Positions 12,555 through 38,998 of a stretch of DNA of 38,998 nt are shown here, piece by piece (the stretch's first letter is position 1; every line of letters starts with the position of its first letter). Position numbers and translations under genes: made by a program. The stretch lies in the NCBI GenBank assembly GCA_023343535.1, contig GCA_023343535.1_3944.1. One strand, 5' to 3'. Source of the stretch: a phage. The notes under the pieces were generated by a model. The model was not told the DNA's origin and searched no databases. It saw nothing but the letters and a program-made list of their open reading frames with translations.

Positions 12555-13595
12555 ATGGAGAAGTACACATTAACAAAACTTCCCGATTCAGTTACACATG
12601 TTTTTATTGACTCTGACAGTATTGCCTATAAAGGTGCTTGTGTAGTTGAGAAAGCAAAATATAAATATGTCAATAAACTCACAGCAGAAGAATCTGAACC
12701 ATTTGATAATGCGAAAGATGCTGCAAGATGGTTAGCAGACCAGAGAATCCTTGTGGAAGAACTTGGCCTGACATTTGATGAAGATGAATGGGAAAGACAG
12801 ACTTGGAAAGAAGCTAAGAGTGAAAAAGAAGCTATCATGGCTACTCAACAGGTTCTTCAGGAATGGCTTAAGGTTGTTGGTAAAGAGAGAACTTGGGTAG
12901 GTTATTTAACAGAGAAAGGTGTGCATAAACATAAAGACATTAAAGGTCTTGAGCACCAATATCAAGGTAACCGTAAAGATGCTGTCACACCAACACACTT
13001 AGTCGCTTGTCGTGAATATCTTTTATCCAGACCAGAGTTCAAGCTCTTAAAGGGTGGCTTCGAAGCCGATTCAATCGTAATTGCTAAAGCTGAAAAGATG
13101 GGTAAGAAAGCTGCTCTTATGAGTATTGACAAAGACCTTCGACAAGCTGAAGGGACGTATTGTATTGATATGACTTATGAAAAGTCACCACTAATTTTTA
13201 TCGCTGACAATAATGTTGGTGATATCTGGGATTGCCCTATCAAATCAAAACCAAAAGCTGCAAAAACAGTTGGTGTAGGTTTTAAATTCTTGTGTTATCA
13301 GGCTGTTGCTGGGGATAATGCAGACAACTACTTTGGTCTTAAAGGTGCTGGTAAAGTAGCTGTGATGAACGCTTTAGAGGGTAAAGAGACCTACAAAGAG
13401 TGTCTTGATGCTATCTATGAACTCTATGCTAAAAAAGAGTCTTACACCTATGTATCATGGGATGGACAGACTGTTACAAAGACACCGTTAGAGTTAATGG
13501 AACAGCATTTCTGGGTGGCATATCAAGAGAGAAATCCAAAAGATAATTTCTCTTTTAAGAAATATAATTGGGAGCCGTGTATGAATGAAGATTAA
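12555..13595 (+). CDS. 5'-3' exonuclease / flap endonuclease (T7 gp6-like)
   Basis: VFIDSDSIAY, SIDKDL and AGDNADNYFGLKGAGK resemble the T7 gene 6 exonuclease blocks (VMDGDW, SCDKDF, GDxxDxYxGIxGxG). Confidence 0.6.
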   Translation: MEKYTLTKLPDSVTHVFIDSDSIAYKGACVVEKAKYKYVNKLTAEESEPFDNAKDAARWLADQRILVEELGLTFDEDEWERQTWKEAKSEKEAIMATQQVLQEWLKVVGKERTWVGYLTEKGVHKHKDIKGLEHQYQGNRKDAVTPTHLVACREYLLSRPEFKLLKGGFEADSIVIAKAEKMGKKAALMSIDKDLRQAEGTYCIDMTYEKSPLIFIADNNVGDIWDCPIKSKPKAAKTVGVGFKFLCYQAVAGDNADNYFGLKGAGKVAVMNALEGKETYKECLDAIYELYAKKESYTYVSWDGQTVTKTPLELMEQHFWVAYQERNPKDNFSFKKYNWEPCMNED

Positions 13596-14082
13596 AGGAT
13601 TTGGCAATTGCCCCACCTATGGTCATTGGGTATCTTTATGTGGGGAAGTTGACCCCACTAAACATTTTGGCTTTGTCTATTTAGTACACTGTAAGAAGAC
13701 CGGACAATATTATATCGGAAAGAAACAACTTAACAGTGTGACAAAAAGAAAAGTTGCTGGGAAGACTCGGAAGAAGGTAGTCACTAAGGAGAGTGATTGG
13801 ATGACTTACGAAACATCTTCTGAGTATATTAAAAAAGATATTGAGAGTTTTGGAAAAGAGTCTTTTGACTTTTACATTATCCAAACCTACTACACAAAAG
13901 GTGGTCTAGTTTATGGTGAAGCAAACCTTCAACATAAGTTCGATGTAATGACAAAAAGGATTGACTCGAAGCTCAGACTCTTCTACAATGCCAATATTGC
14001 AGCAATTAAGTTTATTACTAAAGAAACTTATGAAGATGCTGAAAAAAGAATCCATAAGGTAATGAAAGCAAATTGTGCTTGA
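13585..14082 (+). CDS. GIY-YIG nuclease-like protein (possible homing endonuclease)
   Basis: GFVYLVHCKKTGQYYIGKK matches the GIY-(x10)-YIG spacing; overlaps the exonuclease stop. Confidence 0.4.
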   Translation: MKIKGFGNCPTYGHWVSLCGEVDPTKHFGFVYLVHCKKTGQYYIGKKQLNSVTKRKVAGKTRKKVVTKESDWMTYETSSEYIKKDIESFGKESFDFYIIQTYYTKGGLVYGEANLQHKFDVMTKRIDSKLRLFYNANIAAIKFITKETYEDAEKRIHKVMKANCA

Positions 14083-23668: not shown

Positions 23669-23989
23669 ATGAACAAAGTTTATAACACTCGTAAATTACA
23701 GATTTTCGTACTGTGCCAATTTATGGCTAAAGAGTATAACTACTACTACTGTGGTACAGGGTTCATTAGTGATGATGACGGCTCATATCTACCATTCAAA
23801 GAGGCTGTAAAACTCTTCAATGAAGAGGAAAGCTCTAAGAAAGATATTGAAAAGGTTAAGCTAACCTACAGCAAGAAAGATAAGAAGATTATCTGCCTAG
23901 ATAACTTTGTAAAAGTTACTGGAGAAGCAAAAGAGTTTATGGATGAGAGTGAAATCTCGTTCACAAGCATCTTGAAAGTAGCTCAGTAA
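23669..23989 (+). CDS. hypothetical protein
   Basis: 106-aa ORF followed by terminator 24003-24026. Confidence 0.45.
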   Translation: MNKVYNTRKLQIFVLCQFMAKEYNYYYCGTGFISDDDGSYLPFKEAVKLFNEEESSKKDIEKVKLTYSKKDKKIICLDNFVKVTGEAKEFMDESEISFTSILKVAQ

Positions 23990-24836: not shown

Positions 24837-25292
24837 ATGATTTTTTGCAGCTTCCAAAAAAGAATTATTGAGATTCTATACAATAAGTTTGGGACAGATA
24901 ACACATTTGACTCAAATGAAGCTATTGAAGCCCTACAAGAAGGAAGTGATTACATCAAAAAACAGCCAATAGCAAACATCAGGTACTACTTGACTCAGAT
25001 GAGAAAGTGGGGTGTGCTCATCGTGGTAGGACAGATTAAGCAACAAGGGAGGATGCTCATCAACCAATTAAATAGAGGTTTTATTGAGAAGCACATTCAG
25101 CTAGACTATTTACTTAAAGAGCCACGAAACCAACGTGAAGAGCAGCAAAAAGACTTAAGTGGTGGTGTAGGTGTGTCTCCAGACATAAAATTCTTTATTG
25201 GTGAGTTGATGTTTGATACACTCCAAGATGCTGTTGAACACTGCAAAAAGTATATTATCAAAGTAAAACGTGCAAAAATTATTTGGGAGTAA
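24837..25292 (+). CDS. tandem paralog family member A1 (unknown function; winged-helix-like N-terminus inferred)
   Basis: Shares N-terminal (MIFCxxQKxxIEILYxxFGTxNTFDSNEAIxAL), central (GRxxINQLNRxFxEKHIQL) and C-terminal (EHCKxxxIKVKxAKxIWE) blocks with 25714-26178. Confidence 0.6.
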   Translation: MIFCSFQKRIIEILYNKFGTDNTFDSNEAIEALQEGSDYIKKQPIANIRYYLTQMRKWGVLIVVGQIKQQGRMLINQLNRGFIEKHIQLDYLLKEPRNQREEQQKDLSGGVGVSPDIKFFIGELMFDTLQDAVEHCKKYIIKVKRAKIIWE

Positions 25293-25296
25293 TAAC

Positions 25297-25692
25297 ATGT
25301 TTGAGCTTCTGAAGGTTCTGTATATAAATTTTGGCTATGATAAAACATTTTCTGGCTCACAACTAACTAAGGTTTTTAATAAATATCTACCACATGCTTC
25401 AATCAGGGATAAAGCTAATTGGTCTCACAGATTACGTAAAAGTGGGTACATTAGTGTTGTTGGAGCGACAGGATTTAATAATGAGTATCTTATGAGAATC
25501 AATGAAAGCAAAGCTAAAAATGTGCTTTTAAATTGTAATGACTATCAACAAAAGGATGAAGAGGTCAGTGTAGGTGAAGTAGGGTACTTCATAGGTGACA
25601 TACACTTTACCAGTATGGAGGCAGCAGTTGAGCATTGTAAGAGGACGGTTATCCAAACAAAAAGAAAGCGTATTGTTTGGGAAGAAGTTTAA
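25297..25692 (+). CDS. tandem paralog family member B1 (unknown function)
   Basis: ATG at 25297, 4 nt after A1 stop. Shares ELLKVLYxxFGYDKTF and AxEHCKxxxIQxKRxxxVWE with 26183-26563 and the C-terminal block with the A members. Confidence 0.55.
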   Translation: MFELLKVLYINFGYDKTFSGSQLTKVFNKYLPHASIRDKANWSHRLRKSGYISVVGATGFNNEYLMRINESKAKNVLLNCNDYQQKDEEVSVGEVGYFIGDIHFTSMEAAVEHCKRTVIQTKRKRIVWEEV

Positions 25693-25713
25693 ACATTTGA
25701 TTAGGAATACACT

Positions 25714-26178
25714 ATGATTTTTTGCAATTTACAGAAGCACGTAATAGAGATTTTATACAAAACCTTCGGGACAGAAAACACTTTTGACTCTAACGAAGCA
25801 ATTGACGCATTAAGAGAGAATAGCCTTTTTATACGAGGCCAGTCAATCAGTAATACCCGTGGGTATCTAACAATGTTAAGACAGTCTGGTGTACTACTGA
25901 CTGTAGGGCAGGTAAAAAGCAAAGGTAGACTAAGTATTAATCAATTAAATCGGGCCTTTATGGAGAAGCACATACAACTGTCAAGGATGCTAGATAACAC
26001 GCGTGAAGAGTTGGGGAGTTCACAAAAATCAAACTTATCTGAGGTTAAAGATGTTGATGTACAACCTGACGTAAGATACTTTATCGCGGATGTTATGTTT
26101 AAAACACTAGATGAAGCTATTGAGCACTGCAAAGAGCATCTTATTAAAGTTAAACATGCAAAAGTTATTTGGGAGTGA
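25714..26178 (+). CDS. tandem paralog family member A2
   Basis: Roughly half of residues identical to A1 by eye; same conserved blocks. Confidence 0.6.
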   Translation: MIFCNLQKHVIEILYKTFGTENTFDSNEAIDALRENSLFIRGQSISNTRGYLTMLRQSGVLLTVGQVKSKGRLSINQLNRAFMEKHIQLSRMLDNTREELGSSQKSNLSEVKDVDVQPDVRYFIADVMFKTLDEAIEHCKEHLIKVKHAKVIWE

Positions 26179-26182
26179 TGTT

Positions 26183-26563
26183 ATGATTGAACTGTTAAAA
26201 GTCCTGTATAATGAGTTTGGCTATGATAAAACATTTACTTGCTCACAGATACGTAGTATCCATGACAAGGAATTTCCAGATGTATCCAAGACAAACAAGT
26301 CAACTCGGTTCAATCGTCTTCGCCAGAGGGGTTACATTAAAATAGTTGGATACAAGAAGAACTCTTTCGAGTATGTAATGCAGATTAACAGAGAAGTATC
26401 AAGTAAAATACTTGAAGAGCCAACAGCCGAAGAACAAAAGATACAAGATGGTGAAGTTCGCTTCTTTGTGGAGAAGGAAAGTTTTGGGTCAATAGATGAA
26501 GCTATCGAATATTGTAAAAAGAACATTATCCAGATAAAGCGTAGAAAGGTTATTTGGGAATAA
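26183..26563 (+). CDS. tandem paralog family member B2
   Basis: ATG at 26183, 4 nt after A2 stop; homologous to B1 with conserved C-terminal EYCKKNIIQIKRRKVIWE. Confidence 0.55.
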   Translation: MIELLKVLYNEFGYDKTFTCSQIRSIHDKEFPDVSKTNKSTRFNRLRQRGYIKIVGYKKNSFEYVMQINREVSSKILEEPTAEEQKIQDGEVRFFVEKESFGSIDEAIEYCKKNIIQIKRRKVIWE

Positions 26564-29301: not shown

Positions 29302-29322
29302 GGCTCCTACGGGAGCCTTTTT
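29302..29322 (+). terminator. intrinsic terminator
   Basis: GGCTCC-TACG-GGAGCC then TTTTT. Confidence 0.6.
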
Positions 29323-29339
29323 AATTTCTGGAGAAGATT

Positions 29340-29675
29340 ATGAAAATCAAAGAAATGAACATTAACGTTGTCCTAGAAGAACGTTGGGAGAATATTAAGA
29401 AACCTGAAGATGGTAAAAAGTTCCTTAACAAAATTTTAGTAGCAGCTAAAGAAGAACTGACTGGCAAGATTGCAGCAGCAATCACAATAAAAGTCTGTGT
29501 AAAAGGTCTTCCACAACATCACCAATTTGCACTTGACGAGTTTAAAGAAAGCTTCTACAATCCAAACAAACAGATGCTTGAAAGTAACTTTGCAGTGTCT
29601 ACAAGTATCGTCCATGACAGAAGCTTTATCCTTTACAAAAATATGAGAGGTGAGTCATGCAAGCATATTGGATAG
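29340..29675 (+). CDS. hypothetical protein
   Basis: 111-aa ORF with GGAGAAG Shine-Dalgarno. Confidence 0.45.
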   Translation: MKIKEMNINVVLEERWENIKKPEDGKKFLNKILVAAKEELTGKIAAAITIKVCVKGLPQHHQFALDEFKESFYNPNKQMLESNFAVSTSIVHDRSFILYKNMRGESCKHIG

Positions 29676-29833
29676 AAATTTTACTGTCACTTGGTAGTGT
29701 AGCAGTATTTGTTTACCTTCTTTGCAAGTACTATGCAGAGTGCAAGAAGTGTGATTACTGCAACGGGGAAGGGTATACAAGAGCAGGTTGTTGCCCTATT
29801 TGTGGTGGTTCTGGTAAAATGTTTAATAAGTAA
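29657..29833 (+). CDS. candidate small membrane-anchored zinc-ribbon protein (58 aa)
   Basis: Translation MQAYWIEILLSLGSVAVFVYLLCKYYAECKKCDYCNGEGYTRAGCCPICGGSGKMFNK: hydrophobic N-terminal segment plus CxxC ... CxxC. Below the ORF-track cutoff. Confidence 0.35.
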   Translation: MQAYWIEILLSLGSVAVFVYLLCKYYAECKKCDYCNGEGYTRAGCCPICGGSGKMFNK

Positions 29834-29861
29834 TTTAACAGTGAACTAAGAGGAAAGTATT

Positions 29862-32228
29862 ATGCGCATGGTAAACGACCACGCAGAAGTGATTAAGAGT
29901 TCAACTTCTTTGGAGACATCTCAAGCACAGATTACAATGACACCTGAAATGTTCAGCCTTTTGAGTTCTGGTGTATACACATTTAAAGAGCGAGCAGTGA
30001 TTCGTGAACTGTCATGTAATGCAGTGGATGCTCAGAAAGAAGCTGGAAAAGAGAACATCCCATTCCATGTGCATTTACCTACTCGATTTGAGCCTTACTT
30101 TGAAGTCCGTGACTTTGGAACTGGTTTAACCCACGACAAAGTAATGAGTTTGTATCTGAACTACGGGGCTTCTACGAAGAATGACTCTAATGATTACATT
30201 GGTGCAATGGGTATCGGCTCAAAATCCCCATTTGCAATTGCTCAGTCATTCACAGTATCTAGTTATGTTGATGGTGTTGTTAATAAGTACTCTGTTTACC
30301 TTGAGAATGGTATCCCTCAAGTAACTAAGCTTACTACTAACCCAACAAATGAACCCAATGGTTTAGCTGTACGTGTAGCAGTTGCTGACCACCGTATTTC
30401 AAAGTTCTTTGAAGAGGCTGGTCACGTATATTCATACTTTGCTGTAAAACCAGAAAGCAATATTGTATATGATGATGTGTTAGCAGATATGAACGTCATT
30501 GCCCGTGAAGAGGGTGTTTATGATGCTATGATTCATAAGCAAAGCTGGCGTTCTAGTGGCAACAGGACAGAGTTTAACGTGGTGATGGGTAATATTGCCT
30601 ATCCAGTTAATATGGAAGCATTACTTGGTGATGATTTCTTCAAAGTCTTGCCAGAATTTTTCCGTAGGAGCGTAGACCTTGTAAACATTTACATGCCTAT
30701 TGGTTCAGTTGCTATTGCAGCTTCTCGTGAAGCATTGCAGATGAATGATACGACAAAAAATGTTATCATTGAGGCTACTAAAAAGATAACTGAAGCAATT
30801 ACAAGGGATGTTATTAAGGGAGTTAATAACCAACCTACACTCATGGATGCTGCACAGGCTTATGCAGAGTTACGTTTGAACTCACGAGAAATGTTTAATG
30901 CTGTGTGTCCAAAGCTAGAGTGGGGAGGTGTTAAGCTTGATTCTCTGGAAGAAGAATTGCTAAACATTCGTCGTGGGATTATCTACGCAGAAGACGGCTC
31001 AGTCATTTATGAACGTGACGGTAAAGGTAATATCAAGGTTGATAGGAACGGGAACAATATCCCTAAAGTGGATTATCTTTATAATCCAGTTGCTTATGTC
31101 AAGTTCAACTCTTTAGAGAGTAAGATTCGTGCAACAGCACTTTCCTACACTCAAGAGGCAAGTATGTTCAATATCTTTGGTGCAATGCGTAAAAGCCAAA
31201 TTGAACAGTTTTTGTTCGTGATTAATGACCGTCGTAATAAAAATGGCACTGAGAAGACTGTAGGCCGCAATCAGATTCTGCGTGGTGCATGTCGAGACTA
31301 CGCTAACGAGTCAAGCCTGTTCCACAGATACAATGGTATTGTGTTTGTATTCTCGACTGAAAAAGAGTTAGATGATTTAATCAACCTACATAAACTTGAT
31401 AAAAGTTTGTTAAAGATTGTGAAGATGTCTGATAAGGAACACCATTATCAGCGTAAAGAGGCTGTGAGGGGTGTTGTAAAACTCTGGAAAGCTGTTCCAT
31501 CAGAAACTAAAGCTTCATACACAGAGGTGTCAGAAGACCTAGATACAATTGAAGAACCCCAGCTTTATATCAAGGCAGTAGGCGACACAGTTGATGGTGA
31601 ATGTTTTTGCTCATCCCCAGAAGATGTAGCTAAAACAATTGCTAATGTTATAGGAAAAACAGTCTATGTTTTCCGAAAAGCAAATTGGAAAAAGATACCA
31701 GAAGACTGGATTGAAGTAGATGAGAAGCTATTGAATGACAGCTTAACTGATGTTCACTGGATTAATCATAACAGGTATATGACACGTATCTATATGAATG
31801 GTGTCCTTGACCTTACAAGTAGTTGGATTATTGCCAGAAACTTTACGTTTAATAACAAGAAGATTTCTCGCGGGTATTGCTATTCACGAGATACAAACAA
31901 AACCATCTTCTTAGAAGGTAATGAGAATGCTGTTGAGGCAATGTTTGGTAAGATTCAGTATGTGGCTGCACCGTTTGCATACACTTACACTATCAGTGTT
32001 CTTCAGGATTTGAAGTCATGCCTTGATAATGATACAAAACTGTACAAAAAGATTAAGAAAGCGGGTGACCGCATGGTTATTAAACTGACAAACTACCTTT
32101 CAAAAAGAAAACAAGAAAACTTCTTGCTTTCCCATTTAGATTGGAATAAAGTGTCACCCATCGAAGTGAGTAAGTTCTTAGGTTTTGATGTGAAGTGTGT
32201 TCCAGAAGGGACTACAATTTACTATTAA
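29862..32228 (+). CDS. rIIA: rIIA-like protein with N-terminal GHKL (Bergerat-fold) ATPase domain
   Basis: GHKL motifs in order: N-box RELSCNAVDA, G1 box RDFGTGLT, G2 box GAMGIGSKS; 788 aa. rIIA naming is by analogy to T4 rIIA and the presence of a downstream partner region. Confidence 0.6.
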   Translation: MRMVNDHAEVIKSSTSLETSQAQITMTPEMFSLLSSGVYTFKERAVIRELSCNAVDAQKEAGKENIPFHVHLPTRFEPYFEVRDFGTGLTHDKVMSLYLNYGASTKNDSNDYIGAMGIGSKSPFAIAQSFTVSSYVDGVVNKYSVYLENGIPQVTKLTTNPTNEPNGLAVRVAVADHRISKFFEEAGHVYSYFAVKPESNIVYDDVLADMNVIAREEGVYDAMIHKQSWRSSGNRTEFNVVMGNIAYPVNMEALLGDDFFKVLPEFFRRSVDLVNIYMPIGSVAIAASREALQMNDTTKNVIIEATKKITEAITRDVIKGVNNQPTLMDAAQAYAELRLNSREMFNAVCPKLEWGGVKLDSLEEELLNIRRGIIYAEDGSVIYERDGKGNIKVDRNGNNIPKVDYLYNPVAYVKFNSLESKIRATALSYTQEASMFNIFGAMRKSQIEQFLFVINDRRNKNGTEKTVGRNQILRGACRDYANESSLFHRYNGIVFVFSTEKELDDLINLHKLDKSLLKIVKMSDKEHHYQRKEAVRGVVKLWKAVPSETKASYTEVSEDLDTIEEPQLYIKAVGDTVDGECFCSSPEDVAKTIANVIGKTVYVFRKANWKKIPEDWIEVDEKLLNDSLTDVHWINHNRYMTRIYMNGVLDLTSSWIIARNFTFNNKKISRGYCYSRDTNKTIFLEGNENAVEAMFGKIQYVAAPFAYTYTISVLQDLKSCLDNDTKLYKKIKKAGDRMVIKLTNYLSKRKQENFLLSHLDWNKVSPIEVSKFLGFDVKCVPEGTTIYY

Positions 32229-32233
32229 AGTGT

Positions 32234-32263
32234 TTGACAAGGGGCTTCAAAGCCCCTTAGAAT
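32234..32263 (+). promoter_or_regulatory. sigma70-like promoter with a perfect hairpin-forming inverted repeat in the spacer
   Basis: TTGACA 32234-32239, 18-bp spacer, TAGAAT 32258-32263; the spacer is AAGGGGCT-TCAA-AGCCCCTT. Confidence 0.45.
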
Positions 32264-32307
32264 AGCCTTACAAAATGATTTATTAACTAACAAGAGAGAG
32301 CAATAAG

Positions 32308-32535
32308 ATGACTACTAAAACTAAAGCACAGATTGATGCAGAAATTTACGAACTGGTTAAAGAAGGTAAGCTGACTAAAACAGCGATTGCACAGAAGTTC
32401 AACACTTCAACCCGTTCAGTTGGTCGTGCTGTAGAGCGTCATGAAGCAACCTTAAAAGGCAAGAAAAAGGCAGCTTCTAAACCAGCTACAAAGACTTTGA
32501 AGCAAGTTGCTAAGACCTTTAAAAAAGAAAGCTGA
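32308..32535 (+). CDS. small basic HTH-like protein; possibly the N-terminal part of an rIIB-like gene
   Basis: ATG start with AGAGAGAG Shine-Dalgarno; LTKTAIAQKFNTSTRSVGRAVER helix-turn-helix-like; ends in an A-rich tract where the next ORF continues in the +1 frame. Confidence 0.4.
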   Translation: MTTKTKAQIDAEIYELVKEGKLTKTAIAQKFNTSTRSVGRAVERHEATLKGKKKAASKPATKTLKQVAKTFKKES

Positions 32536-33145
32536 CAAGCCAGTTAAAAAGGCTGTTAACGAGGATGTACAGAAAGCTCCGGTAAATAAACTGCATGAAG
32601 CTATGCAGAATGGCAACCAGATTGAGTACATGATTACTGGCGACTCTGTTATCATGACTTTCGGTGCAGATTCTGAAATCGTTGAATCTACCCATCCGAA
32701 CTACAAAGAAATCGTAATGGCTGTTGTATCCGGTGAGTATAAGAAAGCTTTCGAACTGATGAACATTCGTAAGTCTATCGAAAACTTCACTCAGGGTGCT
32801 ATCACCATCAAAGGTGACAAGTTATTCTACGGTGCTGTTGAGATGCGTTCTACTCTGGTTGACCGTATTCTTCACATGATGAAGACTGGAGATAAAGGTT
32901 TTGAACGCCTTGTGATGTTCTTCGAAAAACTGATGGAAAACCCATCTAAAGATTCTGTAGAACAACTTTGGGGATTCGTATCTCACCTTGATGTTGAAAT
33001 TGATGAAGAAGGCTACATCATTGGTTGGAAGAAAGTCTCTACTCGTGAAGGCAAGCTGGTTGACTCCCGCACCTGCAAAGTACCTAATGATTTGGGTAAC
33101 ATTGTAGAAATGCCACGTTGGATGGTTGATAATAACCTAACGTGA
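32507..33145 (+). CDS. hypothetical protein (start uncertain; possibly the central part of an rIIB-like gene)
   Basis: ORF-track start is TTG at 32507; first in-frame ATG is at 32603 and has no clear Shine-Dalgarno sequence. Confidence 0.4.
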   Translation: MLRPLKKKADKPVKKAVNEDVQKAPVNKLHEAMQNGNQIEYMITGDSVIMTFGADSEIVESTHPNYKEIVMAVVSGEYKKAFELMNIRKSIENFTQGAITIKGDKLFYGAVEMRSTLVDRILHMMKTGDKGFERLVMFFEKLMENPSKDSVEQLWGFVSHLDVEIDEEGYIIGWKKVSTREGKLVDSRTCKVPNDLGNIVEMPRWMVDNNLT

Positions 33146-33417
33146 CTTGCTCTCAAGGTCTTCACGTTGGTGCTTGGGATTATGTTCGTTGCTTCTCAGG
33201 TGATACAATCCTGAAGGTTCGTGTCCACCCACGAGATGTTGTATCTGTTCCAACTGATTACAACGATATGAAGATGCGTTCGTCTCGTTATGAAGTTGCA
33301 GCAATCGTCGATAACCAACGTAAAGTGCTGAAAGAATGGGATGGCAAGACTGAAGCTTTGCATGTCATCGTTGGCACTGCTGGTGAACTCATCTCCCAAC
33401 GTAAACGTGAAATCTAA
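33142..33417 (+). CDS. hypothetical protein (GTG start overlapping the upstream stop; possibly the C-terminal part of an rIIB-like gene)
   Basis: GTGA start/stop overlap; a same-frame stop lies only 9 nt upstream of the GTG. Confidence 0.35.
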   Translation: MTCSQGLHVGAWDYVRCFSGDTILKVRVHPRDVVSVPTDYNDMKMRSSRYEVAAIVDNQRKVLKEWDGKTEALHVIVGTAGELISQRKREI

Positions 33418-33434
33418 TAAGTAATTTCTTAAAA

Positions 33435-33456
33435 GGCTGCTTCGGCGGCCTTTTTT
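33435..33456 (+). terminator. intrinsic terminator (UUCG tetraloop)
   Basis: GGCTGC-TTCG-GCGGCC then TTTTTT. Confidence 0.6.
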
Positions 33457-33457
33457 A

Positions 33458-33486
33458 TTTGTATTTTGTGCAGAGTGCTGTATAAT
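33458..33486 (+). promoter_or_regulatory. possible promoter (weak -35, consensus TATAAT -10)
   Basis: TATAAT at 33481-33486 with TTTGTA 17 bp upstream; about 30 nt before the Shine-Dalgarno and ATG of 33518. Confidence 0.3.
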
Positions 33487-33517
33487 TGTTGTCACGATAA
33501 ACTAAACAGGAGAACCA

Positions 33518-34066
33518 ATGAAGAAATTGATTCTAGGTTTGTGCTTAATGTTTACAGCACACTTATCTTATGCAGTTGACTGCCCAGAGCTATCAATTAG
33601 CCAAAAAGTAAACATGTTAAAAGCTTACCAGTATGGTGAGAATAACATGGGTAAAGGTTGGGGTATCACTCTAGCTGCTATAGCCTTACAAGAGTCAGAG
33701 TTAGGTCTGAAGGTAGAGAATAAAAAGACACATGATTATGGTATTTTCCAGAATCACTTGAAGACTGTTGTAAAGCGTAACAAAATTAGCCCTAATGTGG
33801 CTAAAAAGAAACTCTTAAAAGACTTTGACTATGCTGCGAAGGAAACGCACAAAGAACTTGAGTTTTGGACAAAGGTGCATGGTCAGCCAAAGTCAAAGAA
33901 GACTTTACAAAAAGTTTTAGCATCATATAATGCTGGGTATTCGTACAGAATCCCTAAAGCTAAGAAATATTCTCAAGATGTTTATAACAATATGAAAGTA
34001 ATTGCTCAATGTGAATTTGCAACAAACATTTCTAAGGTAAACCATGAAAAAATTAAGAAAGTCTGA
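33518..34066 (+). CDS. lytic transglycosylase (SLT/lysozyme-like domain) with N-terminal signal peptide; candidate endolysin
   Basis: Signal peptide MKKLILGLCLMFTAHLSYA; catalytic-Glu block LAAIALQESELG; GIFQ and SYNAGYSY blocks matching the SLT signature (ES ... GLMQ ... AYNAG). Confidence 0.6.
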   Translation: MKKLILGLCLMFTAHLSYAVDCPELSISQKVNMLKAYQYGENNMGKGWGITLAAIALQESELGLKVENKKTHDYGIFQNHLKTVVKRNKISPNVAKKKLLKDFDYAAKETHKELEFWTKVHGQPKSKKTLQKVLASYNAGYSYRIPKAKKYSQDVYNNMKVIAQCEFATNISKVNHEKIKKV

Positions 34067-34739
34067 TGAAGTATTGTGCCATGCTTATGACTTACATCCT
34101 CATGAGTTAGGTCTTGATTCCTGTGTATGGACTCCAGAACAGTGCAGGGATTTTGAAGACACCGCAAGAGAAGTTGTATGTTCACTTGAAGAGTTCCACA
34201 CATCAGAACCAATTGTGAACGTTGTGGACAAAGAGACTGGGAAATCCATAGGTGTAAAACGTGATAGCTTAGTCATAGTCAACAAAGACCTTGTAGAGAA
34301 AGGTAATCTTATCTTAGCAGATATTGATGGAGTTCTTACAAATTTTAATCACGAAGATTGTTCAACGGAATTGACTGATGGCTCATTTTCACAGTACACT
34401 AATCTTCTTGACTCTGTAAGAGCAAAACCAACGTATGTTTTCAATATCATTGATGCAATTGCTAATCACGCTACCGTTGGACTCTTGACAGCGAGAGGCG
34501 AATCTCAGAGAATACCTACTGAGATGTTTTTAAGGCATAACACAGAGCATGACTACATGCTTTTTATGCGTGGTTTTGGTACTAACTCTATAAGTGCAGA
34601 AAGTTTGAAAGTGAGGATGATTCAGTCTTGCATTCTGCCTTACTTTAATATAGTATGTTTTATAGAAGATACAGAGAAGAATGTGCAGAAGGTGAACAGA
34701 ATCCTTCCACACATCAAAACCATGTTAGTTAAACATTGA
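34044..34739 (+). CDS. HAD-superfamily hydrolase-like protein
   Basis: Motif I LADIDGVLT (DxDG[TV]), motif II GLLTAR, C-terminal acidic motif FIEDTEK; an extra N-terminal region of about 90 aa. Confidence 0.45.
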   Translation: MKKLRKSDEVLCHAYDLHPHELGLDSCVWTPEQCRDFEDTAREVVCSLEEFHTSEPIVNVVDKETGKSIGVKRDSLVIVNKDLVEKGNLILADIDGVLTNFNHEDCSTELTDGSFSQYTNLLDSVRAKPTYVFNIIDAIANHATVGLLTARGESQRIPTEMFLRHNTEHDYMLFMRGFGTNSISAESLKVRMIQSCILPYFNIVCFIEDTEKNVQKVNRILPHIKTMLVKH

Positions 34740-36768: not shown

Positions 36769-37554
36769 ATGGGTATTGTAAAAATCATCAATGGTGATAT
36801 CTTTGCTGCATTTGATAAAGGTAAGTTTGACATCATTGGTCACGGTTGTAATTGTATGAATTTAATGGGTGCAGGTATCGCTGACAAGATTTCTAAACTT
36901 TACCCAAAAGCATATGAGACCGATACAGAAGTTTACCTATATGCAGGTGGCATAGGTCACAAACCCTGTGAAAATTTACTGGGTAATTTCTCTGTAGTAC
37001 GTTTAAAACAAGGTCGTATAGCTAACCTTTACACTCAGCTTAAGACTGGTAAAGATGCCCGATACAGTGCTTTAGAGTCATCTTTGAAACAGCTTAACAG
37101 ATACTGTGAAGTCAATCAGTTGAAGAAAGTCGGGTTACCTATGATTGGTACAGGCATCGGTGGGCTAGACGCTCAAGCCGTCACAGTTATCATCAATCAG
37201 GTTATGAAGAGTGTAGATGTTTATCTATATGTCTATGAAGGAGAGATGTACCACAAGTTACTCTCAGGTTGGAAGAACTACTGTGAACCAGAATACTTTG
37301 CAGGTGTAGTTGTGTTCACAGATAACGCAGTTACCCTCTTCAGACGAAGAAAAGGTAAGATACATCAAAGTAACCCTCCGGTTGAAAAGATGTCTCTAAG
37401 TAACGCTCTAGTTACCCACCTGTCGAAGAGCAATCACAGGATTGCAGTAACATTTGGCAGTGATGCAGATGCTTACATCTATGCAAGAACTGATGAGGAT
37501 ATCGAGACAGTTTTCTCTTCACCAGAAGTTACCTTCTTAGACGCAAAGAACTAA
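36769..37554 (+). CDS. macro-domain protein (ADP-ribose binding/processing) with C-terminal extension of unknown function
   Basis: GDIFAAFDKGKFDIIGHGCNCMNLMGAGIADKI parallels the macro-domain GDIT ... AIVNAANxxLxxGGGVxxAI block; VGLPMIGTGIGGLD parallels the second block (hAFPxIsTGIyGyp). Confidence 0.65.
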   Translation: MGIVKIINGDIFAAFDKGKFDIIGHGCNCMNLMGAGIADKISKLYPKAYETDTEVYLYAGGIGHKPCENLLGNFSVVRLKQGRIANLYTQLKTGKDARYSALESSLKQLNRYCEVNQLKKVGLPMIGTGIGGLDAQAVTVIINQVMKSVDVYLYVYEGEMYHKLLSGWKNYCEPEYFAGVVVFTDNAVTLFRRRKGKIHQSNPPVEKMSLSNALVTHLSKSNHRIAVTFGSDADAYIYARTDEDIETVFSSPEVTFLDAKN

Positions 37555-37584
37555 GAAACTCCGTAGAATATTCACAATAGTCTA

Positions 37585-37628
37585 AGCCTTCCTTATCTGG
37601 TAAATTTTTCAGGTAAGGAGGGCTTTTT
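37585..37628 (+). terminator. putative intrinsic terminator (long-loop hairpin + U-run)
   Basis: AGCCTTCCTTA / TAAGGAGGGCT arms, then TTTTT. Confidence 0.4.
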
Positions 37629-37822
37629 CATTTCAGATTTGTGCAGGTAGAGTTCTGTAGAGAAATCTGTAGAGAGAATTTTAAACTCCAAAGAGAAAAT
37701 TCATTTTCAAACTGTGCAGGTAATCTCCAAAGAGCTTTTTCATTTTCAAAACGTGCAGACCCCGCTCAGGTCGGGCAAGAAAAATCATTTTAGAATTGTG
37801 CAGGTAGGTGGGTGTAGGTGGG
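37627..37822 (+). repeat. array of four imperfect direct repeats (about 23 bp, consensus TTCATTTTCARAnYTGTGCAGGTA) with nested short repeats; iteron-like
   Basis: Copies at 37627-37650, 37700-37724, 37739-37760 and 37786-37808; also CTCCAAAGAG x2 (37686-37695, 37725-37734), TCTGTAGAG x2 (37654-37674) and GTAGGTGGG x2 (37804-37822). Confidence 0.7.
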
Positions 37823-37983
37823 GCTGTCGCCATTTCTCACAAGGCTACCACATCTAAAAAGAAAAGTCAACAGAAAAATTTGTAGCGGATTGAAAAATAA
37901 TTCTTGATTGTAGTTCTGTTTTGTGGTAGTCACGCGCACCCGTTTCATTACAATCTTTGCAAAAAATATTTTTAAAATTCCTA

Positions 37984-38012
37984 TTGACTCTTTGAGTATG
38001 GTTATCTAATAT
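37984..38012 (+). promoter_or_regulatory. sigma70-like promoter
   Basis: TTGACT 37984-37989, 17-bp spacer, TAATAT 38007-38012; about 50 nt upstream of the ATG at 38063. Confidence 0.5.
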
Positions 38013-38062
38013 TTGCATCAGACGGGCAATCAAGCCCACTTCCTAAACTGGAGAATCTAAAA

Positions 38063-38269
38063 ATGCTGTACAGTCGCGAATTGATGGTTACAACTAACAT
38101 TAACACAAAGGCAAAACGTTTTTACATGCAAATCTGTGGCGTGTGGTCCAGAATATCAGAAGCTGACTATTGCAACTATGTAGAAACGGCTATTAATTCT
38201 AATTGCTATCTGACAAGAAATACTAAGAAGTTTACAAGACAGACAGCAATTTACTACTACGATAAATAA
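38063..38269 (+). CDS. hypothetical protein
   Basis: 68-aa ORF; leader CCTAAACTGGAGA shared with the next gene. Confidence 0.45.
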   Translation: MLYSRELMVTTNINTKAKRFYMQICGVWSRISEADYCNYVETAINSNCYLTRNTKKFTRQTAIYYYDK

Positions 38270-38356
38270 AGTACTTTACAAGGGGCTTATAGTTCGATAA
38301 AGTAAGCCCCAGATAAAGAGCTTTATCAAATTAACCCCCTAAACTGGAGATTCAAA

Positions 38357-38653
38357 ATGAAATTATCGAATAAAGTTCGTGAAAATCTAAGCAAGTTACT
38401 CAACAAAATCGATTTTATCGAGACATCAAGGAATAATCATGATGTTATGGAATGGTTGCACGGCAAAATAAAAGGCCGTCGCGTAGTGATTTGCTTATGG
38501 AATAGTTGCAGGGAGTATAAAAAACCTGTATTGCAAGTAAATATTTATGATGATACTTTTAAAAGTCCAGTAAAGTCTAAAAGCGACTTATTAGAATCCT
38601 ATGAGATAACTGTAAATGGCAAAGTATCACGCAAAGAGGAAACACCATGTTAA
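38357..38653 (+). CDS. hypothetical protein
   Basis: 98-aa ORF with the same CCTAAACTGGAGA leader. Confidence 0.45.
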   Translation: MKLSNKVRENLSKLLNKIDFIETSRNNHDVMEWLHGKIKGRRVVICLWNSCREYKKPVLQVNIYDDTFKSPVKSKSDLLESYEITVNGKVSRKEETPC

Positions 38654-38979
38654 TGACTGGCATCACTGCAATCATTGCCATTCTCGCGCTTTATAAGGCA
38701 TATAAAGCCTATAATCTAGCAAATAAGGCAATCACACAGCAGGTTAGCAATAACCTTGTAGAGAGCTTTCTAGGGCGCCTCAGTGATGAGCAAATAAAGC
38801 GGCTAGAGATGAGCTTCAGATATAAAGCGAAAACCTATCAGATAAGTGACATCTTCAAAGATGATTTTCAGTTAGTTGATGATTATAATTCTCTGATAAA
38901 TGCTTTAAATATCAGTGACTTAAAAGACTACTACGCTGTAATTGTTCAAGAATTGAGCAAACGGAAACAAAATGTTTGA
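38647..38979 (+). CDS. membrane protein (N-terminal transmembrane helix)
   Basis: N-terminus MLMTGITAIIAILALYKAY is hydrophobic; ATGA-type overlap with the upstream gene. Confidence 0.45.
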   Translation: MLMTGITAIIAILALYKAYKAYNLANKAITQQVSNNLVESFLGRLSDEQIKRLEMSFRYKAKTYQISDIFKDDFQLVDDYNSLINALNISDLKDYYAVIVQELSKRKQNV

Positions 38980-38998
38980 CACTGGTTTTTAGATAGAG

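Follow-up and report, generated by a model that had tools for sequence, protein, structure and literature searches.

In the phage DNA considered here, a gene resembling rIIA of phage T4 is followed by three open reading frames (ORFs) that together tile a single stretch of sequence. Such an arrangement can be read as three genuine, coupled genes, as one rIIB-like gene broken by an indel, or as a gene whose product is completed by recoding, and all three readings were entertained in the original prediction for this locus. Which of them accounts for the three ORFs is the question that we address here. All coordinates refer to the window, that is, the whole analysed stretch of 38,998 nt, and the ORFs on which the question turns (29862-32228, 32308-32535, 32507-33145, and 33142-33417) are all present in the ORF list with the starts originally assigned to them.

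The phage and its rIIA gene

The window derives from a Felixounavirus (Felix O1-like); among deposited relatives, Escherichia phage finno is the closest. Among the 56 finno coding sequences compared with the window by tblastn, 54 are present at full length without gaps or stops, and rIIB is the only gene that is split. Other one-base gaps between the two genomes, as located by blastn, are either intergenic or fall in pairs no more than 7 nt apart, leaving no coding indel other than the pair in rIIB across ~36.8 kb and 54 intact genes. The finno annotation "DNA ligase (x2)" was considered as a possible second split gene and rejected, as it denotes a conserved small upstream ORF next to an intact ligase, with no frameshift. 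A search of complete E. coli genomes for the rIIA-rIIB locus of the window found no copy.

The upstream gene and its conserved elements are as follows.

29862-32228, + strand: rIIA, intact, 788 aa, ATG start (phrog_612, "RIIA lysis inhibitor")
29943-30851, + strand: N-terminal GHKL (Hsp90/TRAP1-like) ATPase domain plus a second (transducer-like) domain of rIIA
30003-30032, + strand: N-box
30108-30131, + strand: G1 box
30201-30227, + strand: G2 box

The gene equals its Alf5 counterpart in length, matches finno rIIA at 97.3% identity without gaps or stops (tblastn), and aligns with phrog_612 over aa 1-770 of 788 (E 1.3e-188). The three GHKL motifs occur in order, namely, the N-box (ExxxNxxD; RELSCNAVDA, aa 48-57), G1 (DxGxG; RDFGTGLT, aa 83-90), and G2 (GxxGxG; GAMGIGSKS, aa 114-122), and their signature residues E49/N53/D56, D84-G86-G88, and G114-G117-G119 show little or no variation among 26 homologues. 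When an rIIA profile is compared with the PDB, it retrieves the N-domains of TRAP1, HtpG, and GRP94 (E 5e-11), with the N-box, G1, and G2 aligned to the corresponding TRAP1/Hsp90 boxes. Homologues bear PF13589/PF02518, and an AF2 model of the protein (pLDDT 83) finds its best Foldseek matches in TRAP1/Hsp90, GyrB, and MutL (probability 1.00, E 2e-14 to 1e-10). The PHROG assignment, the PDB profile, and the predicted fold thus bear out the initial identification of 29862-32228 as an rIIA-like GHKL ATPase carrying three motifs; they confirm, at the level of profile and model, an N-terminal domain of the Bergerat-fold GHKL type for which ATP binding and hydrolysis are predicted. Simpler searches gave little: a single-sequence Pfam scan returned HATPase_c at only E 0.13 and did not recognise rIIA, the same kind of scan matched no rIIB model in the downstream ORFs, and phmmer of rIIA against the PDB gave no match where the later profile search did. 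Recognition of both genes required PHROGs together with profile and fold methods, beyond single-sequence Pfam.

The rIIB region and its two lesions

Directly downstream of rIIA (29862-32228) and on the same strand lies the region (32308-33417) that contains the three ORFs, which can be partitioned as follows.

32234-32263, + strand: putative sigma-70-like promoter ahead of rIIB (TTGACA-18-TAGAAT, 11/12 consensus match, from which its function is presumed)
32308-33417, + strand: rIIB pseudogene; 1110 nt spanning all of the former coding sequence, in colinear match to rIIB (369 aa) of Alf5, FelixO1, and finno
32308-32535, + strand: fragment 1, 75 aa, ATG start; native residues 1-73, covering the N-terminal HTH-like domain together with a portion of the Lys-rich linker
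32521-32526, + strand: lesion 1, one additional A in a homopolymer; an A6 run where relatives have A5 (AAAAAG) or AAGAAG
32507-33145, + strand: fragment 2, 212 aa, frame 2, TTG start; native residues about 74-276
between 33137 and 33138, + strand: lesion 2, one G missing, AACCGTAAC to AACCTAAC, outside any homopolymer
33142-33417, + strand: fragment 3, 91 aa, GTG start, native frame restored; native residues 279-369
33431-33454, + strand: intrinsic-terminator-like hairpin with a T-run after rIIB

A GC hairpin lies within the spacer of the putative promoter.

The three ORFs match successive portions of the RIIB profile phrog_609, fragment 1 at positions 755-814 (E 9e-5), fragment 2 at 793-984 (E 3.4e-52), and fragment 3 at 988-1049 (E 8.8e-21), and this consecutive tiling is far beyond chance. 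The rIIB protein of finno, itself 36% identical to T4 rIIB (E 3e-61), maps by tblastn onto the three frames of the window through its residues 1-73, 82-276, and 278-369, the last of these being 100% identical to fragment 3. Public gene calls record PF26926 (Phage_T4_rIIB) for the second and third ORFs. Fragment 1 shows weak HTH matches in Pfam (the best, 4e-5, under the cut-off) and aligns with aa 13-49 of T4 rIIB, and fragment 3 holds the most conserved rIIB motif, TCSQGLHVG...HPRDVVSVPTDYND. Alignment to rIIB homologues, one of the checks put forward with the original prediction, finds the intact orthologues colinear with the region and separated from it by one additional A and one missing G; mean column identity is 98%, and only two columns contain gaps.

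The additional A falls at codons 72-74 in the Lys-rich linker, where blastn against finno places the insertion in the run ending at 32526; the A-tract TTTAAAAAAGAAAGC that had drawn attention to this site can be read directly in the sequence. Beyond it, fragment 1 acquires two out-of-frame residues (E, S) before a TGA at 32533-32535. The missing G affects codon 277, immediately ahead of the C-terminal motif that is most conserved and inside the best-conserved block shared with T4 rIIB, and the shifted frame ends at a TGA (33143-33145) that overlaps, as GTGA, the GTG of fragment 3, which is a native Val codon. The same-frame stop noted earlier 9 nt before this GTG is likewise present (TAA, 33133-33135). 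The annotated TTG start of fragment 2 (32507) has no Shine-Dalgarno sequence, and the first ATG, at 32603, lies 68 nt past the fragment-1 stop; fragment 2 has no credible start of its own.

The two lesions are 612 nt apart and of opposite sign, which keeps the gene at 1110 nt, and each meets a stop within three codons, yielding the ORFs of 75, 212, and 91 aa. A mutually suppressing +/- pair in the style of Crick and Brenner was considered and rejected, as the shifted frame stops three codons after the insertion. Lesion 2 does not compensate functionally, because a ribosome starting at 32308 never reaches the frame restored downstream of 33138. The proposal that an indel at the A-run and a second change disrupted a single rIIB-like gene thus stands on the orthologue alignment, but the description of that second change as compensating falls, given where the ATG frame stops.

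Judged by its sequence, the region is by descent a member of the T4-type RIIB family (PF26926; PHROG 609, 3803) but a pseudogene of the frameshift kind: intact orthologues are colinear with it, the indels can be pinpointed, and stops occur prematurely. It is very probable that rIIB of this Felix O1-like virulent phage was recently inactivated by two independent single-base frameshifts while rIIA stayed intact. The first hit would have been the gain of an A through slippage in the A5 run of the Lys-rich linker, and the second the loss of a G in codon 277. A ribosome starting from the native ATG would then produce only a 75-residue N-terminal peptide containing the HTH-like domain, and the conserved rIIB core (residues about 95-369) would lack a good initiation signal and would itself be cut in two. 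The phage is therefore probably rIIB-null with rIIA intact. More speculatively, the second lesion may remove residual core rIIB that a single +A allele could still supply through internal initiation or rare +1 slippage. Two observations count against a double loss: opposite-sign indels that preserve gene length are an unusual coincidence, and two hits in so young a pseudogene need either selection or luck.

Alternative explanations of the split frame

One or both indels could be sequencing or assembly errors, with rIIB actually intact. The first lesion is a change of homopolymer length, the opposite signs keep the length of 1110 nt, and neither allele is present in the collections of deposited sequences that were searched. 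Mutant 42-nt megablast probes on each lesion matched 0 records among deposited phages, negatives that stand because the wild-type probes, included as controls against possible DUST masking, matched 43 and 101 phage records. IMG/VR contains 12 wild-type sequences and 0 mutant ones, and exact-pattern scans of IMG/VR and of JGI metagenomes found neither allele, just as a scan of GTDB genomes found no +A allele. Against error stands the recovery of the same sequence elsewhere: the Logan assembly of ERR8288607 contains the locus at 100% identity, and the three ORF products are also recorded under two NCBI E. coli TPA accessions, with HCC4393655.1 and HCC4836998.1 as the NCBI proteins concerned, which makes an assembly error unlikely, although these assemblies may share the same or related read sets, so that their agreement holds at the assembly level and a library artefact is possible. 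Moreover, the same +A allele has been assembled in four contigs of other runs, an A6 run is too short to disturb short-read consensus calling, lesion 2 lies outside any homopolymer, and the many other genes compared with finno contain no further coding indel. By our own arithmetic, two random indels in ~33 kb of coding sequence would both fall in the same 1.1-kb gene with a chance of ~3%. Taken together, we consider error quite improbable.

Programmed recoding would require the ribosome to shift by +1 on AAA AAA G (or transcription to slip there), followed by a -1 shift or termination-reinitiation at GTGA, to generate full-length RIIB. Its appeal is that re-pairing of a P-site tRNA-Lys from AAA to the AAG one base further on is feasible and would recreate the exact wild-type TFKKKADK, and that the frame-2 stop overlaps the native-frame GTG. 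However, rIIB is one unbroken frame in the sampled relatives, which leaves nothing to recode, and the two-frame state is unconserved and sits on recent tips. Junction 1 would call for +1 rather than -1, its A-site codon is the common GAA, and the upstream sequence GCTAAGACCTTT contains no Shine-Dalgarno-like stimulator; at junction 2, the overlap (33136-33142, CCTAACG) offers no slippery heptamer and makes re-pairing impossible. The RNA downstream of the two junctions folds no better than shuffled sequences (z +0.32 and -0.16). None of the hallmarks of programmed -1 frameshifting, namely, a slippery heptamer, stimulatory RNA, and a conserved two-frame layout, is found at rIIB, and junction 1 does not qualify as a programmed +1 site of the prfB type despite the possible re-pairing. 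The original prediction was right that the second junction lacks a classical slippery heptamer, to which the missing RNA structure and the single-frame relatives can now be added; for the same reasons, its recoding option is unsupported, and we regard it as extremely unlikely. We are just as sceptical of a functional split, in which three separately translated, coupled polypeptides would jointly give RIIB activity. The pieces do roughly match the domain layout (HTH-like domain with part of the linker, middle, and C-terminal motif), and the N-terminal part of rIIB is dispensable in T4 (r1589). Yet there is no Shine-Dalgarno sequence or plausible fragment-2 start near the fragment-1 stop, translation of fragment 3 depends on fragment 2, lesion 2 disrupts the best-conserved block shared with T4, and no relative has separate genes. 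The option of three genuine coupled genes is without support.

Recurrent loss of rIIB and known systems

Double frameshift inactivation, the preferred reading, can be set against the fate of rIIB across the genus. The +A lesion recurs in another sequence background, which has SNPs within 50 nt to either side of it. Three other independent one-base rIIB deletions are found in Felixounavirus contigs (-A at nt 629-632, in contig L029, -T at nt 818-819, and -G at nt 867-869). The natural losses comprise five lesion types in at least five Felixounavirus lineages, and this small data set shows that rIIB is lost again and again and does not persist in the long term. Private substitutions in four of the broken lineages (the fifth, L029, being left out) amount to 22 synonymous versus 4 nonsynonymous; these losses are recent, because private changes on the analysed broken backgrounds are mostly synonymous. 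The rIIB pseudogene of the window has one private nonsynonymous change. A tblastn count of rIIB "pieces" in the phage collection yielded 13 Felixounavirus rows, all with rIIB intact, which are too few for a rate. Two C-terminal fragments (P0007 and P0022) were rejected as lesions, as they reflect a scaffold gap and contig ends, and an apparent cluster formed by three -1 lesions (nt 818-869) was not taken as meaningful, in view of ascertainment via fragment clusters and of the fifth lesion at nt 629-632.

Loss of rIIB would be tolerated if, as the literature suggests, the gene is dispensable on hosts without particular defence systems. It may even be favoured, RIIB being toxic and a trigger sensed by CARD/gasdermin systems in T6, and the price of losing it would be susceptibility to defences of the RexAB or QatABCD type. 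Selection for the loss is suggested by analogy with T6 and with the Felixounavirus Bas63. A bolder version, which we think unlikely, holds that Felixounaviruses repeatedly and transiently switch off rIIB via slippage in short homopolymers, notably the A5 run of the dispensable Lys-rich linker, as host defence senses RIIB in the manner of the CARD-gasdermin systems that act on T6, and that the second lesion was selected against leaking core RIIB. Were this true, the locus would illustrate from the field how a counter-defence gene can double as a defence trigger, with the A-run serving as a crude contingency switch. For annotation, the three public "hypothetical proteins" of the contig are pieces of one dead rIIB gene, and no new recoding signal or new genes are called for at this locus; the finding is an ordinary one. 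Recurrent loss is in keeping with experimental reports in which RIIB is required under certain conditions, to withstand RexAB and QatABCD, but is also toxic and a trigger for other defences. T4-type RIIB is characterised by a role against RexAB/Qat-type defences and by the rapid lysis of its mutants. The phage is predicted to behave as rIIB-null, being sensitive to defences of the RexAB/Qat type and perhaps able to escape those that sense RIIB.

Among known recoding sites, the tract AAAAAAG is similar to that of dnaX (A AAA AAG, -1), but its zero frame, AAA AAA GAA, is in the wrong register for -1; the direction needed is +1, as in prfB (CUU UGA C), and, unlike dnaX and prfB, the window has neither stimulator nor conservation. 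A closer parallel is provided by the rIIB frameshift mutants of T4, both Benzer's spontaneous rII mutants and the Crick-Brenner FC0 "+/-" series, which affect the same gene family through single-base gains and losses, mostly in short homopolymer runs, and can grow on permissive hosts. Runs of A6 form Benzer's hot spots, and the matching early portion of T4 rIIB contains an A6 run as well. In the classical +/- pairs, however, function returns because both lesions sit near each other within the dispensable B1 segment, with an open frame from one to the other. The lesions in the window are separated by 612 nt, translation in the shifted frame ends after three codons, and the conserved core contains the second of them, which makes the gene a double null and not a suppressed pair.

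Within the genus itself, deletions of g84 (rIIB) and g85 (rIIA) in Bas63 are viable on a laboratory host, and deletion of either gene lowers the efficiency of plating (EOP) by 1e4-1e5 on a host carrying qatABCD, against which both genes are needed together (PhageMaP preprint, 10.1101/2024.10.10.617714). The same two genes are concerned in the window, but the Bas63 mutants are engineered deletions, whereas the window carries natural point frameshifts and an intact rIIA. Five frameshifts early in rIIB of T6, and one stop in the same gene, allow escape from the Lysobacter gasdermin system, and the mutants become RexAB-sensitive (Wein et al. preprint, PMC10312443). These escapers of Lysobacter/Pedobacter CARD-gasdermin defence resemble the window in their early rIIB frameshifts, and they arise spontaneously, are selected, and are viable (PMC10312443); they come from a laboratory selection that exposed a T-even phage to a defined system, whereas for the window selection is only inferred.

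The rII locus and its reading frames

All the open reading frames named in the original prediction are present in the ORF list and in the sequence, and two candidate transcription signals flank the rIIB region.

29862-32228, + strand: rIIA ORF, 788 aa (ORF list, sequence)
32234-32263, + strand: near-consensus promoter-like site between rIIA and rIIB, TTGACA-18-TAGAAT (consensus match)
32308-32535, + strand: fragment 1, 75 aa, ATG start (ORF list, sequence)
32507-33145, + strand: fragment 2, 212 aa, TTG start, next frame (ORF list, sequence)
33142-33417, + strand: fragment 3, 91 aa, GTG start, first frame again (ORF list, sequence)
33431-33454, + strand: terminator-like hairpin with a T-run after rIIB (sequence)

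PHROG profiles identify 29862-32228 as RIIA (phrog_612, E 1.3e-188) and show fragments 1, 2 and 3 tiling a single RIIB profile (phrog_609, positions 755-814, 793-984 and 988-1049); a Pfam scan with single sequences was uninformative for rIIA and the three small ORFs. By megablast, the rIIB region matches 277 phage records at no more than 97.4% identity, nearly all of them Felixounavirus (Felix O1-like myoviruses of Escherichia, Salmonella and Shigella), and among the records listed a single feature, mostly called rIIB or rII lysis inhibitor, is annotated under the match. The rIIB of Alf5 and Felix O1 is one 1110-nt gene (369 aa) that starts 80 nt past rIIA. Felixounavirus rIIB is 36% identical to T4 rIIB across nearly its full length (E 3e-61), and sequence comparison identifies it as a true orthologue.

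The stretch 32308-33417 is exactly 1110 nt, the same length as intact rIIB, and its alignment with Alf5 and Felix O1 contains two gap columns only. At the first junction TTTAAAAAGAAAGC has become TTTAAAAAAGAAAGC by addition of one A, leaving an A6 run at 32521-32526, past which the ATG frame reads GAA AGC TGA and stops; at the second, AACCGTAACGTG has become AACCTAACGTG by loss of one G between 33137 and 33138, after which CTA ACG TGA closes the middle frame. Fragment 3 opens at a GTG "start" that is a native Val codon overlapping the middle-frame TGA, and a frame-1 TAA lies ahead of it at 33133-33135. The three ORFs therefore arise mechanically from a pair of frameshifts in a single gene, each with its prompt stop. 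The colinear alignment thus supports the proposal of one rIIB-like gene broken by indels, without the "compensating" role suggested for the second change: the shifted frame closes after three codons, and a mutually suppressing +/- pair was rejected.

The gene encodes an HTH-like N-terminal domain, then a variable Lys-rich linker, in which the first lesion sits, and then a conserved core. Conservation in the core is strongest in the block MPR..V......TCS.GLHV....HPRDVVS.P.DYND.KMR, which starts directly after the second lesion. Since the promoter-like site and the terminator are retained, rIIB RNA is probably still made. Within the promoter spacer is a perfect GC-rich hairpin, GGGGCTT CAA AGCCCC, without a T-run behind it, which may signal the end or the processing of rIIA RNA, or else regulate the promoter.

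The predicted GHKL ATPase domain of rIIA is borne out at the level of motif and fold. Among homologues of its first 330 residues, PF13589 or PF02518 is frequent, and a 26-sequence rIIA profile matches the N-domains of TRAP1, HtpG and GRP94 (E 5e-11), aligning IRELSCNAVDA with IRELISNASDA, VRDFGTG with IQDTGIG, and IGAMGIGSKS with IGQFGVGFYS. An AF2 model (pLDDT 83, pTM 0.81) matches the ATPase regions of TRAP1/Hsp90, GyrB and MutL with probability 1.00.

Sequence fidelity and competing explanations

The nearest record over the entire window is Escherichia phage finno (MN850619), to which 36.8 kb aligns by blastn at 98.5% identity with 13 one-base gaps; those outside rIIB are all intergenic or form frame-keeping adjacent pairs at most 7 nt apart. 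By tblastn, 54 of 56 finno proteins match over their full length, free of gaps and stops, and rIIB is the only one in three pieces; of the remainder, one is missing and another has a homologue in its place. The window sequence is not generally noisy, and consensus errors are not typical of an A6 run or of a site outside homopolymers. By our own arithmetic, two random indels in ~33 kb of coding DNA would share one 1.1-kb gene with a chance of ~3%. Exactly these three products recur under two third-party E. coli assembly accessions at NCBI (HCC4393655.1/56.1, HCC4836998.1/99.1) as well as in the Logan assembly of ERR8288607, whose contig is 100% identical to window 29308-34150. This is an agreement of assemblies, not reads, and leaves a small probability for a library-level artefact. 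The filing of this virulent-phage sequence within E. coli isolate assemblies (TPA; HCC4393655.1, HCC4836998.1), like that of other full-length Felixounavirus contigs (e.g., EON7240602.1), suggests that the phages were carried over with, or live in a carrier state in, the bacterial cultures that were sequenced.

Over 36783-38998 synteny with finno is lost: finno_36 is missing and the counterpart of finno_37 is only 41% identical in protein, a mosaic replacement at the right end. Genes for GIY-YIG and HNH homing endonucleases (13585-14079 and 23669-23986) lie between genes for replication and for nucleotide metabolism, the same arrangement as in finno, and SNP density against finno is raised around them at 21-24 kb. 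Four adjacent small genes at 24837-26560 (homologues of finno_55, 54, 53 and 52) are paralogous and alternate as A-B-A-B (A pair 57% identical, B pair ~42%, A versus B ~25-31%), suggesting tandem duplication of a two-gene unit. A further overlap involves two genes:

1603-2739, - strand: DNA ligase gene (sequence)
2678-2896, - strand: Cys-rich ORF, 72 aa, CxC...CxxC, zinc-ribbon-like (sequence)

The smaller ORF overlaps the ligase start by 62 nt and is itself named "DNA ligase" in some records; it is conserved across relatives, and its reading as a frameshifted ligase was rejected.

The original prediction had also entertained recoding and three coupled genes, neither of which finds support in the sequence, RNA folding or relatives. 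Recoding at the first junction would need a +1 shift, and tRNA-Lys could indeed slip from AAA to AAG, recreating the wild-type peptide; however, the next codon is the common GAA, no Shine-Dalgarno-like stimulator lies upstream, and A6 is short for transcriptional slippage, leaving at most a low-level leak. The second junction would require a -1 shift inside CCTAACG (33136-33142), where no tRNA can re-pair, in keeping with the earlier remark that it lacks a classical slippery heptamer. For RNA 3' of the two junctions, folding does not exceed that of shuffled sequence (z +0.32 and -0.16), and sampled relatives carry rIIB in one frame; recoding was accordingly rejected. Three coupled genes were rejected as well; close to the stop of fragment 1 there is no credible place to initiate fragment 2, whose first in-frame ATG is at 32603.

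Recurrence and age of broken rIIB alleles

Probes of 42 nt centred on either lesion match no deposited phage genome, whereas the corresponding wild-type probes match 43 and 101 phage records. IMG/VR holds 12 wild-type and 0 mutant sequences; neither mutant allele was found in JGI metagenomes, nor the +A allele in GTDB genomes, nor the rII locus at all in complete E. coli genomes. Logan and ENA assemblies yielded at least four more, apparently independent, alleles in which a single-base change in a short homopolymer run shifts the frame of Felixounavirus rIIB. SRR5935990 and two ENA assemblies have -G in the GGG run at rIIB nt 867-869, two ENA metagenome scaffolds have -T in the TT run at nt 818-819, ERR4623046 has -A in the A4 run at nt 629-632, and ERR14116127/8 carries the same +A (nt 214-218) without the second lesion. 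This +A has a different background, with SNPs less than 50 nt away to either side, and most likely has a separate origin from that in the window. Three -1 lesions, including the window's, fall within nt 818-869, a clustering that may be ascertainment. One of the -T scaffolds (L010:1-2900; ENA ERZ28585935, 84,955 nt) additionally lacks the GHKL half of rIIA through a large deletion that leaves 354 aa and fuses the 5' part of a nicotinamide phosphoribosyltransferase gene to the rIIA 3' half, so that rIIA and rIIB are both dead.

After indel repair, none of the broken sequences contains internal stops. Of the seven substitutions private to the window rIIB against 22 relatives, six are synonymous and only K84N, in the linker, is not; over the four broken lineages analysed, the window's and the further ones except the -A allele of ERR4623046, the private changes number 22 synonymous and 4 nonsynonymous, and they are mostly synonymous in the three further lineages as well. 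This predominance of synonymous changes indicates that each lesion struck a gene under purifying selection until recently, and the broken alleles have the look of short-lived tips rather than of an arrangement kept up over a long time.

Consequences of rIIB loss and parallels in T-even phages

Earlier work had already described the rII pair, placed it in its family and shown it to be dispensable. In the Felixounavirus Bas63, deletion of rIIA or rIIB is viable, with a 1e4-1e5-fold drop on a qatABCD host (10.1101/2024.10.10.617714). T4 requires rII against RexAB only. In T6, spontaneous early rIIB frameshifts provide escape from a CARD-gasdermin system triggered by RIIB, a protein toxic to E. 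coli (PMC10312443). Because of this literature rIIB loss can be taken as tolerated, and our best reading is that it is recent and tolerated or mildly favoured. The +A lesion would have come from slippage in the homopolymer; the -G lesion may be a neutral second hit or, more speculatively, a selected removal of residual core protein. What stands out, mildly, is that wild Felixounavirus sequences have lost rIIB repeatedly and recently, which could bear on the trade-off of a counter-defence gene acting as a defence trigger.

This natural double-frameshift allele is reminiscent of the "+" and "-" mutants of T4 rIIB. Unlike the suppressing pairs of T4, however, the window's lesions would not suppress each other, since the shifted frame shuts so early. 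T4 rIIB has its own A6 run, TCTAAAAAATTC, at about nt 250 in its early, poorly conserved part (L024:2140-2160, - strand, in a T4 sequence), a region comparable to that of the Felixounavirus A5 run mutated in the window.
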